DNA of 64,000 nucleotides from Acetobacteraceae bacterium (lineage in GTDB: Bacteria > Pseudomonadota > Alphaproteobacteria > Acetobacterales > Acetobacteraceae): assembly GCA_965198825.1 (NCBI GenBank), contig CBDAQB010000002.1, positions 431,209 through 495,208 on the forward strand, in the 5' to 3' direction. Below the pieces are notes generated by a model. That model made no database searches. It was given only the letters and a program-made list of their open reading frames with translations, and was not told the DNA's origin. Position 1 is the first letter of the stretch. Every line of letters begins with the position of its first letter. Shown piece after piece: positions 43,279 through 49,596 of this stretch. Both the position numbers and the translations under genes were made by a program.

Positions 43279-43707
43279 TCAGGCTGCGCCTGTTGGTAGT
43301 GGCCCCTGCGCAGAGAGTATTGCCCATTCGTTGTCCGTGAAGATCCGGCTGCGTGTTAGGAAACGAACTCCCTCTGGAGATTCCAGGGAAAAACCCGAGC
43401 CTCGGCCTGGGACTACGTCGATGGTGAGCTGCGTGTGAGCCCAATATTCGAATTGAGCTGCGCCCATGTAGAAGGGCGCGCCGGCGATGGTTCCCAGGAG
43501 AACATCCTGTGCGCCTACGCGGAAATCACCGAGCGGGTAGCACATAGGGGCGCTGCCGTCGCAGCATCCGCCCGATTGATGGAACAATAAGTCGCCGTGA
43601 ATGGCGCGAAGCTTCTCCACGATTTTTTCAGCAGCAGGCGTAATCAAGACCCGCGCCGCAGGCATTTCGACAGTGGCGGTGTCAGTGTCGTGATCCATGA
43701 TGCCCAT
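43279..43707 (-). CDS. DUF779 family protein (typically linked to aldehyde dehydrogenase genes)
   Basis: FHQSGGCCDGSAPMCY, QFEYWAHTQLTIDVVPGRGSGFSLE. Confidence 0.9.
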   Translation of the reverse strand: MGIMDHDTDTATVEMPAARVLITPAAEKIVEKLRAIHGDLLFHQSGGCCDGSAPMCYPLGDFRVGAQDVLLGTIAGAPFYMGAAQFEYWAHTQLTIDVVPGRGSGFSLESPEGVRFLTRSRIFTDNEWAILSAQGPLPTGAA

Positions 43708-43787: not shown

Positions 43788-44741
43788 TTACTCAGCGCGC
43801 CTCAAACCGAGCCGGCGCAATTTACGATGTAGGGTAGCGCGGCTCACACCCAAGACGCGCGCCGCCTGCGACACATTGCCGTCCGCGCGGGCGAGGGCGC
43901 GTTGGAGGACTCCGCGTTCGGCGGATTCGAGGTTTTCAATGCCGTCGTCAGCCGGGCAGAGGATGGTGTCTGCCGGCAGGGATTTGGCGAGTTGCGCGTC
44001 GGTAATGCCACAGGCGATACGGGCGGCGCGTGTTGCACCGACGATGAGGTCGTCTTCGCTGATGGCGAGCAGGGCGCCTGCGCCCCAGTCCGTATCGGGT
44101 GCGAGGACGATGCGGGCGCGCGGGAAGGCGCCGCGGAAGTTGCGCGCCTCGATGCGCCGTGCGGCGTCCACGACGGCCGATGCGATCAGGCCGATGAAAT
44201 CCTGGGTGAGGTCGGCGCGGCAGGATGAGACGTCGATGGCCGCCGCGAGGCGTCCCTGGTGGTCGTAGATGGGGGCTACGGTGCAGCTGAGGCCAGTGTT
44301 CCGGGCGTGGAAATGCTGGTCGCGGTGGATGGTGAGCGCGCGTTCCTCGGCGATGCAGGTGCCGATTCCGTTGGTGCCTTCGGCTTCCTCGCTCCAGACG
44401 GTTCCTGTCCAGAGGCCCCAGCGAAAGAAGGTTTTGTCATCGGCGCAGACGCCGCGCCGGTCCACGGGAACGCCGTGGCGGTCGGTGAAGAGCACGCAGC
44501 AGCCGGTATCGCCGACCGCCTGGAAGAGGCGGTCGAGCGTGCCTGTCGCGGCGGAGAGGAGCGGTTCGACATGTTCACGGGCTTCGCGCAGTTCGCGGTC
44601 AGTGAGCACGCGCGGGGGGCGGGTATCGTGCGGATCGAGGCCGTAACGGGTGAGCGAACGGGTCCAGGAGGCGAAGATAGCAGAGCGCCCGGACGCGGAG
44701 GGGTCGCGTGCTGCGGCAATGATGCGATCGGCGTGGTTCAC
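43788..44741 (-). CDS. GAF + Fis-type HTH regulator (AcoR-like, no AAA+ domain)
   Basis: SWTRS, GTNGIGTCI, LSCTVAPIYD GAF motifs; GNVSQAARVLGVSRATLHRKL; GGGAGG 9 nt upstream of GTG. Confidence 0.85.
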   Translation of the reverse strand: MNHADRIIAAARDPSASGRSAIFASWTRSLTRYGLDPHDTRPPRVLTDRELREAREHVEPLLSAATGTLDRLFQAVGDTGCCVLFTDRHGVPVDRRGVCADDKTFFRWGLWTGTVWSEEAEGTNGIGTCIAEERALTIHRDQHFHARNTGLSCTVAPIYDHQGRLAAAIDVSSCRADLTQDFIGLIASAVVDAARRIEARNFRGAFPRARIVLAPDTDWGAGALLAISEDDLIVGATRAARIACGITDAQLAKSLPADTILCPADDGIENLESAERGVLQRALARADGNVSQAARVLGVSRATLHRKLRRLGLRRAE

Positions 44742-45081: not shown

Positions 45082-46824
45082 ATGACTGACCGTGTTCCCG
45101 CCCGTTTCGGCTTGCGAAGCGCCGGCTTGCGACTTCGGCAGGTGCTGGCTCTGACCTGCGCCGTAGCGTTGCCGCTGTCGCAGGCTTCGGCTGGTGCGAC
45201 CCTGAAATATTCGCCTGTCACGGACGCGCGCCTTGCTGCTGCCGCGAACGACGACGGCTGGCTGATGTATCGCCATGATTACGGCAGCACCGGCTATTCG
45301 AAGCTGAAGCTGATCAACGAGACAAACGTCGGCAAGCTCAGGCAGATCTGGGACTACAAGAGCGACTTCGAGCAGGGTCATGAGTCGGCGCCGATCGTCA
45401 ACGGCGACACGATGTTCATCACCACGCCGAAGGACGAGGTGCATGCGTTCCAGGCGAGCACGGGCAAGGCGCTGTGGACCTACAAGCATGACCTCTCGAG
45501 CGTCGGCCTGAAGACGGTTTGCTGCGACGTGGTGAACCGCGGCGTGGCGGTCTATGGCGACAACGTCTATCTCGCGACGCTCGACAACTATGTCGTGGCG
45601 CTCGATGGCCAGACCGGCAACGTGGTGTGGAAGAAGCAGCTCGCTCCGGCCGATCAGGGTGCTGCGATGACGCTGGCGCCGCTCGTCGTGAAGGGCAAGG
45701 TCATCGTCGGCCTGTCCGGCGGCGAATATGGCGCACGTGGCGCGGTCACCGCGCTCGATGCGAAAACCGGTGATCAAGTCTGGAAGAAATTCACCATCCC
45801 GGCGCCTGGCGAGCCTGGCGGCGATACCTGGCCGAAGGGCGCCTACAAGACCGGCGGCGGCGGCGCCTGGCTGACTGGCACCTACGATGCGGCGACCGAC
45901 ACGCTGTTCTGGGGCGTCGGCAATCCTGGCCCGTGGCTGGCAACACTTCGTCCCGGCAACAACCTCTACACCGACAGCGTCATTGCGATGAACCCGGGCA
46001 CCGGCGACATCAAGTGGAGCTATCAGTACACGCCGCACGACACCTGGGACTACGACGGCACCAACGAGACGGTGCTGACCGACATCAACTACGAGGGCAC
46101 GCCGCACAAGGCGCTGGTCTCGGCGAGCCGGAATGGCTGGTTCTACGCCATCGACCGGGTCAGCGGTAAGCTGATCTATGCCGAGAAGTTCGCGACCGCG
46201 ACGTCGGTCAAGGGCGTCGAGAACGGCCAGATGGTGACGGACGATGCGCTGCGTCCTGATGTGGGCAAGGAAGTGTTCACCTGCCCGAGCTTCCTGGGCG
46301 GCAAGAACTGGTGGCCGATCGCCGTCGATCCGCAGACCCATTTCGCCTACGTGCCGACGATGCATACCTGCATGAAGATCAAGGGCGGCGCGGTGAGCTA
46401 CCACGCCGGCCTGCCGTTCCTCGGCGAGAGCTTCAACGTCATGCGTGATCCGGCCTTCCCGGATGCGTGGGGCGCCGTGCAGGCGATCGATCTGAACACC
46501 GGCAAGCAGGCGTGGAACTTCCCCTCCAAGCTGCCCTGGAACGACGGCATGCTGGCAACTGCCGGCGGGCTGGTTTTCTCAGGCAGCGCTGACGGCTACC
46601 TGTATGGCTTCGACGCCAAGACGGGTGCCGTGAAGTGGAAGAGCCCGCAGATGAGCTCAGGCATCATCGGCGTGCCAAGCACCTGGAAGGTCGGCGGCAA
46701 GCAGTATGTCGGCCTGTGGGCCGGCTGGGGCGGCGCGACACCGATCTGGGGCGGCGACATGGCCAAGGATCCGGCCGTGAAATCCATTCCGCTCGGTGGC
46801 CACTTCTATGTGTTCGGGCTGTAG
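45082..46824 (+). CDS. Type I PQQ-dependent alcohol dehydrogenase, ExaF/PedH-like (lanthanide-type motif)
   Basis: Signal peptide; CCDVVNRG vicinal Cys; GGEYG, GNPGPW, WDYDG; PSFLGGKNW; no heme motif. Confidence 0.9.
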   Translation: MTDRVPARFGLRSAGLRLRQVLALTCAVALPLSQASAGATLKYSPVTDARLAAAANDDGWLMYRHDYGSTGYSKLKLINETNVGKLRQIWDYKSDFEQGHESAPIVNGDTMFITTPKDEVHAFQASTGKALWTYKHDLSSVGLKTVCCDVVNRGVAVYGDNVYLATLDNYVVALDGQTGNVVWKKQLAPADQGAAMTLAPLVVKGKVIVGLSGGEYGARGAVTALDAKTGDQVWKKFTIPAPGEPGGDTWPKGAYKTGGGGAWLTGTYDAATDTLFWGVGNPGPWLATLRPGNNLYTDSVIAMNPGTGDIKWSYQYTPHDTWDYDGTNETVLTDINYEGTPHKALVSASRNGWFYAIDRVSGKLIYAEKFATATSVKGVENGQMVTDDALRPDVGKEVFTCPSFLGGKNWWPIAVDPQTHFAYVPTMHTCMKIKGGAVSYHAGLPFLGESFNVMRDPAFPDAWGAVQAIDLNTGKQAWNFPSKLPWNDGMLATAGGLVFSGSADGYLYGFDAKTGAVKWKSPQMSSGIIGVPSTWKVGGKQYVGLWAGWGGATPIWGGDMAKDPAVKSIPLGGHFYVFGL

Positions 46825-46833
46825 GGACTGGTA

Positions 46834-48021
46834 TTGATGAAGACCAACTCCACCAGGCAGGCGCTTCTGGCGTCCTGCTTGGTGGCCGGAGGTGTCGTGC
46901 TCGCGCACGGCACCGCTTCGGCCGCCACCATGCCGGGCAACCTCTCGGTGTGCATCGACACGGCTAGCGCTTCGGCCGCGCGTGACCAGAAGGTTGCAGA
47001 GGCGGTGGCGCACCGTGAAAATGTTCAGCTTGCCGTGGAGCATTTCACCAGCAGCGACGATGACGACGGAGTTTCGCCAAAGGAATTCCGCAAGCTCATC
47101 GGCAGCAAATGCAAGCTGGTGCTCGGCTTTCCGGTCGATGCCACAAAGGGATCGTCGCCCGGGCTGCCGCCTGACCTGATGACCACGACGGCCTATGGTG
47201 AGACCGGTTTCGTGTTCGTGGTGCCGCAGGGATCGACGGCCAAGCGGCTCGCCGACCTTCCCGACAACACCGACGTGGCGGTGACCTACGAGACGGCGCC
47301 GAACACGTATTTTCTGGACCACAAGAATGTTTCGCCGGACGTGCATACGTCCGACAAGGAGACGCTGGAGACGGTCGCCTCAGGCAAGGTGAAGGCCGCC
47401 ATGGTCTGGGGCCCAACTCTGCAGGCCTACCTGAAATCGACCCCGGACGCGAAGCTCAGCGCCTATCCGCTGGATGAGCCCCACGCGCGCTACCAGGTGG
47501 TGGCCCTCTATGGCGAGGACGGCACGGCAGACGCGGCGCGCTTCCAGAAGGCTGTCGCCGATCTCGGTGGCTCCAGCGCGCTCGACAAGACGATCGCCTC
47601 GGACGGCGAGGGCGGCGGCACCACGACTGTGCAGCCGCCGGCGCCCTCTTCCGCCCCCGGGCCGCACGCCGACGCCGGCGGCTTGCCCGCGCTCTATACG
47701 GAGGCGCAGGCCAAGCAAGGCGCACAAAAGTTCTCCGACAATTGCGAGCAGTGCCATGGCGCGCATCTCGAAGGCCGCGCAGGGCCGGCGCTCAAGGGGC
47801 CGAACTTTGCCTCCAAGGCCTCAAACTTCACGGTTAGCGACATCTTCACGATTGTCTCACAGAACATGCCTGCTTCCAATCCAGGCAGCCTGGAGCACGA
47901 TGATTACGTGCAGATCATGGCTTTCCTCTTGCAGCAGAACGGCTACCCCGCGGGTTCGACTGCCTTGACGTTCGACGGTGCGGGCGCTTCCAAGGTCGCT
48001 TTGGTCTACCAGCCTAAATAG
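46834..48021 (+). CDS. Fusion of MxaJ/XoxJ-like periplasmic binding protein and C-terminal cytochrome c
   Basis: LSVCID, CKLVLGFP, LMTTTAYGETGFVFV, AMVWGP; Pro/Gly linker; CEQCH and NMP ligands. Confidence 0.8.
   Translation: MMKTNSTRQALLASCLVAGGVVLAHGTASAATMPGNLSVCIDTASASAARDQKVAEAVAHRENVQLAVEHFTSSDDDDGVSPKEFRKLIGSKCKLVLGFPVDATKGSSPGLPPDLMTTTAYGETGFVFVVPQGSTAKRLADLPDNTDVAVTYETAPNTYFLDHKNVSPDVHTSDKETLETVASGKVKAAMVWGPTLQAYLKSTPDAKLSAYPLDEPHARYQVVALYGEDGTADAARFQKAVADLGGSSALDKTIASDGEGGGTTTVQPPAPSSAPGPHADAGGLPALYTEAQAKQGAQKFSDNCEQCHGAHLEGRAGPALKGPNFASKASNFTVSDIFTIVSQNMPASNPGSLEHDDYVQIMAFLLQQNGYPAGSTALTFDGAGASKVALVYQPK

Positions 48022-48075: not shown

Positions 48076-49596
<1,521 letters not shown>

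Follow-up and report, generated by a model that had tools for sequence, protein, structure and literature searches.

Here we show that a 64,000-nucleotide stretch of the genome of an Acetobacteraceae bacterium (assembly GCA_965198825.1, contig CBDAQB010000002.1, positions 431,209 to 495,208; the window, when its whole length is meant) encodes, directly after a lanthanide-type alcohol dehydrogenase (ADH) dependent on pyrroloquinoline quinone (PQQ), a single-chain protein in which a domain distantly related to the J proteins XoxJ, MxaJ and PedG is joined through a flexible linker to a c-type cytochrome. This fusion had been proposed from the letters of the DNA and their open reading frames (ORFs), in what we call the sequence-only reading, and it is genuine. 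We consider it probable, at roughly 0.6, that the protein is the dedicated electron acceptor of the enzyme encoded next to it, its cytochrome being tethered to a J-derived module that would recognise the dehydrogenase and would probably aid its maturation.

Anatomy of the fusion protein

The ORF of the fusion (46837..48021, + strand) specifies 394 amino acids (aa) from an ATG, or 395 from an alternative TTG at 46834, in a frame that is open to 48021; residues are numbered here on the 395-aa product. The gene starts 12 nt past the stop codon of the ADH gene, and the database copy of the protein has 394 aa and an ATG start. The single frame, the signal peptide and the motifs that had been read from the sequence are all present: LSVCID (residues 37-42), CKLVLGFP (93-100), TTTAYGETGFVFV, VWGP (191-194), the linker (258-283), CEQCH (304-308) and NMP (344-346).

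The product looks like an exported protein, with an N-terminal signal peptide of the Sec type (46837..46923, +) that was assigned by reading the sequence (basic n-region, hydrophobic core and AxA site) rather than with a predictor, and whose predicted cleavage site follows A-S-A at residues 28-30. Three regions follow: (i) a type II periplasmic-binding-protein domain (residues 36-256; 46939..47601, +), assigned as a distant XoxJ/MxaJ/PedG relative from AlphaFold2, Foldseek, TIGR03871 and hhalign, and carrying an acidic, glycine-rich loop, SSDDDDG (residues 73-79; 47050..47070, +), that was delimited with an alignment of homologues and variant counts; (ii) a flexible linker of 26 residues rich in Gly, Pro, Ala and Thr (258-283; 47605..47682, +); and (iii) a class I monohaem c-type cytochrome domain (residues 284-395; 47683..48018, +), with the haem motif CEQCH at 47743-47757 (+) and the axial Met345 at 47866-47868 (+). 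The AlphaFold2 model, built with 34 homologues as input (mean predicted local distance difference test, pLDDT, 78.6; predicted template modelling score, pTM, 0.61), shows the same arrangement: a two-lobed alpha/beta domain over residues 36-256, mostly with a pLDDT of 85-95, a disordered stretch over 257-281 with a pLDDT below 50, and a helical cytochrome domain. Both the length and the sequence of the linker differ among the 34 aligned homologues, and many relatives have one longer than 26 residues.

The enzyme encoded upstream

The gene that precedes the fusion (45082..46824, +) encodes a 580-aa PQQ-dependent ADH of the lanthanide, PedH/ExaF-like type, which scores 576 bits against TIGR03075 (cut-off 480) and has PedH (6ZCW, E 3e-115) as its best solved relative. 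At the metal site it reads WDYDG, where PedH has WDFDG and the calcium-type ExaA has WDFSG; thus the enzyme has the lanthanide-coordinating Asp. The vicinal CC is present and a haem domain is absent.

The N-terminal domain is a distant J relative

The sequence-only reading took the N-terminal domain to be MxaJ-like. By sequence comparison this stands in part: the domain is J-like, but only a distant relative of XoxJ, MxaJ and PedG. Three lines of evidence support the relationship. (i) Residues 52-216 match TIGR03871, the family of quinoprotein-dehydrogenase-associated binding proteins in NCBIfam, with 30.3 bits and an E of 2.9e-7, against a curated cut-off of 212.15 bits. This is the sole binding-protein family matched by the fusion protein; it is matched by 21 of the 34 homologues (best E 1.2e-8), any other such family by 1 of the 34. 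(ii) Comparison of an alignment of the N-terminal domain with one of XoxJ/MxaJ proteins from related genomes gave, with hhalign, a probability of 97.5% (E 5e-12, 207 columns). (iii) The domain is 23% identical to the XoxJ encoded elsewhere in the same genome, and motifs align between the two (LSVCID with LRVCAD, CKLVLG with CDVIIG and VWGP with LWGP). Cys40 and Cys93, which are invariant in the 34 homologues, align with the Cys pair of this XoxJ, of XoxJ 6ONP and of MxaJ (5SV6 and 9ISM_B).

Pfam overlooks the N-terminal domain entirely, SBP_bac_3 giving no match, and finds the C-terminal cytochrome only. Foldseek against the PDB returned type II (Venus-flytrap) amino-acid-binding proteins at E about 1e-12; XoxJ and MxaJ are absent among the matches listed, all of which are amino-acid-binding proteins, so that the search confirms the fold and cannot rank the J proteins. 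A search of solved structures with the sequence and with the 34-sequence profile found only cytochromes and, for the N-terminal domain, very weak generic binding proteins, and did not reach XoxJ or MxaJ. As a control for the profile comparison we searched the bacterium's own genome for ordinary SBP_bac_3 proteins, and no protein there reached the Pfam cut-off; the organism appears to be without ordinary polar-amino-acid binding proteins of this family. The sole weak SBP_bac_3 match in the genome is XoxJ.

The acidic loop sets this family apart. It reads SSDDDDG in the window's protein and GSGDDDG in the family consensus, with an invariant Asp77, and the canonical XoxJ and MxaJ proteins have a non-acidic loop at this position. 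Across the family the loop is variable, and in the AlphaFold2 model its confidence is low. A search with the N-terminal domain by itself also recovered stand-alone relatives. The stand-alone P0218 (279 aa) and P0220 (292 aa; on 86 contigs) have even longer acidic loops.

The cytochrome domain

The C-terminal domain scores above the Pfam cut-offs for both PF13442 (34.7 bits, cut-off 27; residues 291-365, E 2e-8) and PF00034 (21.5 bits, cut-off 21.3), and its haem ligands, Cys304, Cys307, His308 and Met345, are invariant in the 34 homologues. The match to the MoxG cytochrome cL family (TIGR03872), which recurs weakly in 28 of the 34 homologues, has 28.8 bits and an E of 1e-6 and misses the cut-off of 147.8; weak NCBIfam matches to c550 and c551 families are likewise all below their cut-offs, and the PedF/ExaB c550 family (TIGR04494, cut-off 122 bits) was not matched by the window's protein at E <= 0.01. 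The nearest relatives of the domain are stand-alone cytochromes of 135-190 aa from unnamed families. We also observed a set of proteins of about 900-1030 aa (P0151-P0159) that carry four copies of a closely related cytochrome domain (E 1e-74 to 1e-87 against the profile).

The fusion is common, and tied to lanthanide-type enzymes

In the sequence-only reading the protein was the best candidate for novelty in the window. This claim is weakened: the fusion is not rare but common in sequence databases, and a cytochrome–XoxJ fusion had already been characterised, as discussed below. In a large protein collection, full-length homologues make up at least 249 clusters; after clustering at 50%, 145 representatives were found at E < 1e-30, several dozen of them full-length fusions. 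At least 124 species-representative genomes have the locus, among them Gluconacetobacter, Acetobacter, Acidomonas, Lichenicoccus, Beijerinckia mobilis, Rhodanobacter and Dyella, and also Dokdonella, Pseudoxanthomonas, Solimonas, Nevskia and Steroidobacteraceae. Both Alpha- and Gammaproteobacteria have retained the fused form, at 32-58% identity. Where the homologues have names at all, these are 'c-type cytochrome' or, in the sense of amino-acid transport, 'substrate-binding protein', and never that of such a fusion, a matter of consequence for annotation.

The association with the dehydrogenase is strict. Wherever a related locus includes upstream DNA, it has an ADH orthologue (59-85% identical) directly before the fusion on the same strand; all 66 of the scorable enzymes read WDYDG, and most related loci have an ExaC orthologue upstream or downstream of the pair. 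Of 80 related loci, 70 passed a strict test for the motifs in a single ORF. When 400 genomes were sampled evenly across the phylum, only four further matches came up, all of them frames of 410-485 aa with CxxCH adjoining a WDYDG enzyme; the family is thus patchy.

The sequence-only reading had also named a stop in the linker, revealed by resequencing, as something that would undo the fusion. The frame is uninterrupted in an 87%-identical copy of 394 aa, whose 632-kb contig derives from another source (ENA), and in hundreds of full-length homologues, among them those of cultured Gluconacetobacter, Acetobacter, Dyella, Rhodanobacter, Pseudoxanthomonas and Beijerinckia strains.

Split counterparts and another fusion lineage

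The two halves of the protein also exist as separate genes. On six metagenome contigs from four sources, represented by the loci L109 (5001-6990) and L110 (2400-4389), genes for an aldehyde dehydrogenase, a DUF779 protein and an ADH come first and are followed by a J-like gene (252 aa) and then a cytochrome gene (140 aa). The last two share an overlap of 4 nt, and both of their products carry a signal peptide of their own; these products are 36% (J-like) and 43% (cytochrome) identical to the corresponding halves of the fusion. The accompanying ADH is 54% identical to that of the window and has the same Asp-x-Asp (WDYD), while the corresponding loop of the J-like protein is only weakly acidic (DGGEG). 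These split orthologues, with the same gene order and separate signal peptides, uphold the Rosetta-stone link that had been drawn from the fusion. The fusion's linker aligns with the stretch just past the signal peptide of the split-form cytochrome, which suggests that the fused gene originated by read-through between coupled genes. In both split loci the pair is followed by a conserved exported protein of 270 aa, P0346, with no family match.

Two further candidates for split forms, L107 (5001-6210) and L108 (5001-6157), were rejected: on these long-read metagenome contigs the halves lie in different frames, without a separate start or signal peptide, the frame shifting inside the linker. The neighbouring ADH is broken too in L107, and both shifts are likely to be frameshift errors of long-read sequencing at homopolymers.

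Three of the four matches in the phylum sample, L104 (1192-2430), L105 (1003-2304, - strand) and L106 (1051-2280, - strand), form a second fusion lineage. Each adjoins a WDYDG PQQ dehydrogenase. L104 and L106 score 93-102 bits against TIGR03871, and their C-terminal domains match PedF c550 weakly; a search of solved structures with L106, the only member so examined, gave XoxJ 6ONP as the top match (E 5e-11). The lineage is thus much nearer to canonical XoxJ than the window's family and forms a bridge between them, which adds to the case for J homology. In a maximum-likelihood tree of N-terminal domains, midpoint-rooted for drawing only and read with no direction of change, this lineage joins canonical XoxJ/MxaJ (support 100/99), whereas the window's family has the split clade as its companion. 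The fused L103 falls outside both, and the stand-alone P0218 and P0220 sit inside the fused clade. This intermingling of fused and split states requires more than one fusion or fission.

Proposed function and alternative explanations

We propose that the fusion protein would act as the exported, two-domain partner of the ADH encoded just upstream. By the example of homologous cytochromes, its C-terminal domain would be the enzyme's dedicated physiological acceptor, taking the role of ExaB/PedF or XoxG and passing electrons on to the respiratory chain, and ExaC would then oxidise the aldehyde product. The N-terminal domain, by analogy with MxaJ, would bind the dehydrogenase at the face of its PQQ pocket, beside which the flexible tether would hold the cytochrome at high local concentration; one polypeptide could in this way serve maturation or recognition as well as electron transfer, and J may dock the acceptor on the dehydrogenase, as the sequence-only reading suggested. 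The fused gene probably goes back to neighbouring J-like and cytochrome genes under translational coupling; in that case the linker would stem from the stretch around the point at which the signal peptide of the cytochrome once ended. In support of the proposal stand the invariant haem ligands and Cys pair, the homology to J proteins, the constant pairing with lanthanide-type ADHs, the split orthologues, the presence of pqqC without a PedF-type c550 in the genome, and the precedents of cytochrome cGJ, which takes electrons from XoxF (PMC8498564, PMC6688271), and of MxaJ, which clamps the roof loop over the PQQ pocket of MxaF (PMC12276312).

Several observations weigh against this proposal. The link between the fusion's cytochrome and the upstream ADH is drawn from sequence and gene context, and the placement of the two domains relative to each other is unreliable in the AlphaFold2 model, whose pTM is 0.61. 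The N-terminal domain fails the threshold of the curated J family by a wide distance, 30.3 against 212.15 bits. By score the C-terminal domain belongs neither to the cL nor to the PedF family. In the N-terminal domain the region of the MxaJ L8 loop is shortened and the loop's motif (RNQY; R-N-x-Y) is absent, so this domain may bind the enzyme differently from MxaJ; XoxJ 6ONP is also without RNQY, and the motif thus marks MxaJ rather than J proteins as a whole. Finally, a chaperone that is expected to leave once PQQ is loaded sits uneasily with a permanent tether.

In one alternative explanation the N-terminal domain is only a transient chaperone for the insertion of PQQ or metal, like MxaJ, and its fusion to the cytochrome is a near-neutral accident that says nothing about catalytic docking, caused by loss of the stop codon between overlapping, co-translated genes. 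Several observations favour such an accident: the split genes overlap by 4 nt, so that one small indel could fuse them, the linker aligns just past the signal peptide of the stand-alone cytochrome, and two metagenome contigs show apparent frameshifts within the linker. MxaJ, moreover, dissociates after PQQ binding (PMC12276312). However, a neutral join would have to be reconciled with its retention across Alpha- and Gammaproteobacteria, with the interleaving of fused and split states on the tree, with a second lineage beside the canonical J proteins and with a further fusion in Verrucomicrobia. That the fusion recurs and has long been retained points to a selective advantage, and we regard the accident as unlikely. 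Opposite to it stands a bolder extension of our proposal, which we hold to be quite improbable: that the J-type helper of this clade of lanthanide ADHs stays on as a lasting component of the active electron-transfer complex. Its cleft, acidic loop included, would hold either the dehydrogenase's roof loop or a lanthanide ion, and the tethered cytochrome would dock on that same face. If this were true, the repeated independent fusions (the window's family, L104-L106 and the Verrucomicrobial protein) would record a general, unrecognised function of J in the catalytic cycle.

The acidic loop has also to be considered in another light, since the N-terminal domain could be a ligand-binding module whose cleft captures PQQ or a lanthanide ion for delivery to the dehydrogenase, with the cytochrome as a passenger or a redox sensor. 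The Venus-flytrap fold is that of binding proteins, and in the first lobe the GSGDDDG-type loop, which includes an invariant Asp, separates strand 2 from the next helix, a position that we take, from mapping onto the LAO-binding protein, to be the lip of the cleft between the lobes. The loop is specific to the family and absent from XoxJ/MxaJ, it is longer still in the stand-alone P0218 and P0220, and every partner ADH that was scored is of the lanthanide type. Yet the split orthologues pair their weakly acidic DGGEG with the same kind of ADH, the loop is variable and modelled with low confidence, our data do not let the geometry of a metal site be read, and XoxJ is reported to bind neither lanthanides nor PQQ. 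We find this explanation more doubtful still. There is, lastly, practically no chance that the long ORF is a sequencing or assembly artefact that merges two genes: errors do occur in the GC-rich linker, and the long-read contigs L107 and L108 have the halves in different frames, but the same uninterrupted frame is conserved in the copy from a separate source, in the related loci that passed the strict motif test and in cultured strains, which refutes it.

Gene neighbourhood and the rest of the genome

In the window the cluster consists of two arms. Rightward, the ADH and the fusion are followed by the gene for an NAD-dependent acetaldehyde dehydrogenase, ExaC (48076..49596, +; 506 aa; NF050026, 933.6 bits against a cut-off of 900). 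Leftward lie a divergent regulator with GAF and Fis-type helix-turn-helix (HTH) domains (43788..44741, -; 317 aa; PF01590 and PF02954) and a DUF779 protein (43279..43707, -; 142 aa; PF05610, E 2e-47); the related clusters L108, L109 and L110 have DUF779 as well. The GAF-HTH regulator, in which Pfam detected no sigma-54 ATPase domain, is conserved at 65-76% identity upstream in the loci of Acetobacteraceae; in those of Gammaproteobacteria it was not found.

The statement that the operon has no separate J or cytochrome gene holds for the window, where none is present in the ADH–fusion–ExaC cluster. Elsewhere in the genome, however, another contig (C3 2167.5-2174.5 kb; L010:8537-15502) carries a classical lanthanide-type cluster of a XoxF-like enzyme, a cytochrome, XoxJ and a CXXCW protein. 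This XoxJ is canonical by score (TIGR03871, 281 bits; E 1e-59 to PDB 6ONP), and the cytochrome is TIGR03874-like (methanol metabolism-related), below the family cut-off. No gene for a PedF-type c550 was found in the genome, which is 93.8% complete. The presence of pqqC (380 bits) indicates that the bacterium makes PQQ. The classical xox cluster is directly followed by genes for a NosP sensor, which narrowly misses its cut-off, and for a NahK-like hybrid kinase.

Comparison with known systems

The sequence-only reading regarded the role of J as unresolved. For MxaJ this is outdated: cryo-electron microscopy has in 2025 shown it to be a chaperone, which contacts the roof loop of MxaF through its L8 loop, pulls the roof loop off the PQQ pocket and so opens it, and leaves after PQQ binding (PMC12276312). 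The role of PedG, the J homologue of ped clusters, is still uncertain, and the ExaF locus of M. extorquens has separate PedG- and PedF-like genes (PMC12997753).

The two halves of the fusion thus have well-known counterparts, from which they also depart: (i) Like XoxJ, MxaJ and PedG (TIGR03871 and TIGR03870; 6ONP, 5SV6 and 9ISM), the N-terminal domain has a type II fold, the Cys pair (VCxD ... C-x-[LV]-[VI]-x-G), W-G-P and an adjoining gene for a PQQ dehydrogenase; it differs from them in its low identity of about 20-23%, its shortened L8 region, its added acidic loop and its covalently attached cytochrome. (ii) The C-terminal domain resembles the c550 proteins ExaB/PedF and the cL proteins MxaG/XoxG as a small periplasmic monohaem class I cytochrome encoded beside a PQQ ADH; these proteins act as the acceptors of their enzymes, and the domain lies outside both families by score. 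(iii) The split orthologues of L109 and L110 share with the window the order ADH, J-like gene and cytochrome, the WDYD motif and the DUF779 and aldehyde dehydrogenase neighbours, and differ in having two genes with a 4-nt overlap, separate signal peptides and a weak acidic loop. With natural split and fused versions side by side, the role of J proteins in the catalytic cycle becomes directly testable, and many of the carriers, such as Gluconacetobacter, Acetobacter, Beijerinckia, Dyella and Rhodanobacter, are cultured and tractable. (iv) In the type II quinohaemoprotein ADHs (1KV9, 1YIQ and 1KB0) a covalent tether likewise holds a cytochrome near the PQQ site; there, however, the cytochrome is fused to the dehydrogenase, and here to a helper protein.

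The closest parallel is found in Verrucomicrobia. XoxGJ of Methylacidiphilum is a cytochrome c protein fused with XoxJ, which was characterised in 2019 and, purified as cytochrome cGJ, accepts electrons from XoxF (PMC8498564, PMC6688271, PMC8170126). In this literature the XoxGJ fusion is called exceptional and its J part truncated (PMC8498564, PMC6688271, PMC8170126, PMC5623727, PMC8779874). Cytochrome cGJ (Mfumv2_1185 of Methylacidiphilum fumariolicum SolV, and its relatives) resembles the window's protein in combining a cytochrome and a XoxJ-type domain in one polypeptide beside a lanthanide-dependent PQQ dehydrogenase (PMC8498564, PMC6688271, PMC5623727). Our search of the literature, which is not proof of absence, found no J-then-cytochrome fusion beside PedH/ExaF-like enzymes. 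Cytochrome cGJ and the window's protein also differ: cGJ, which we compare through the wording of the papers and not through its sequence, is named G:J and has a J part described as truncated (PMC6688271), whereas in the window a complete J-like domain precedes the cytochrome; the partner of cGJ is the methanol dehydrogenase XoxF, that of the window's protein a PedH/ExaF-like enzyme with ExaC; cGJ belongs to Verrucomicrobia and the present family to Proteobacteria; and, unlike the window's cluster, Methylacidiphilum retains a separate xoxJ in the operon. Taken together, these comparisons show that the concept of the fusion is already established by cGJ and that what is new here is the family in which the J-like domain precedes the cytochrome beside PedH/ExaF-like enzymes: in contrast to the 'exception' of Methylacidiphilum, the fusion of J with an acceptor would be the rule for a clade of lanthanide enzymes in soil and plant-associated Proteobacteria.

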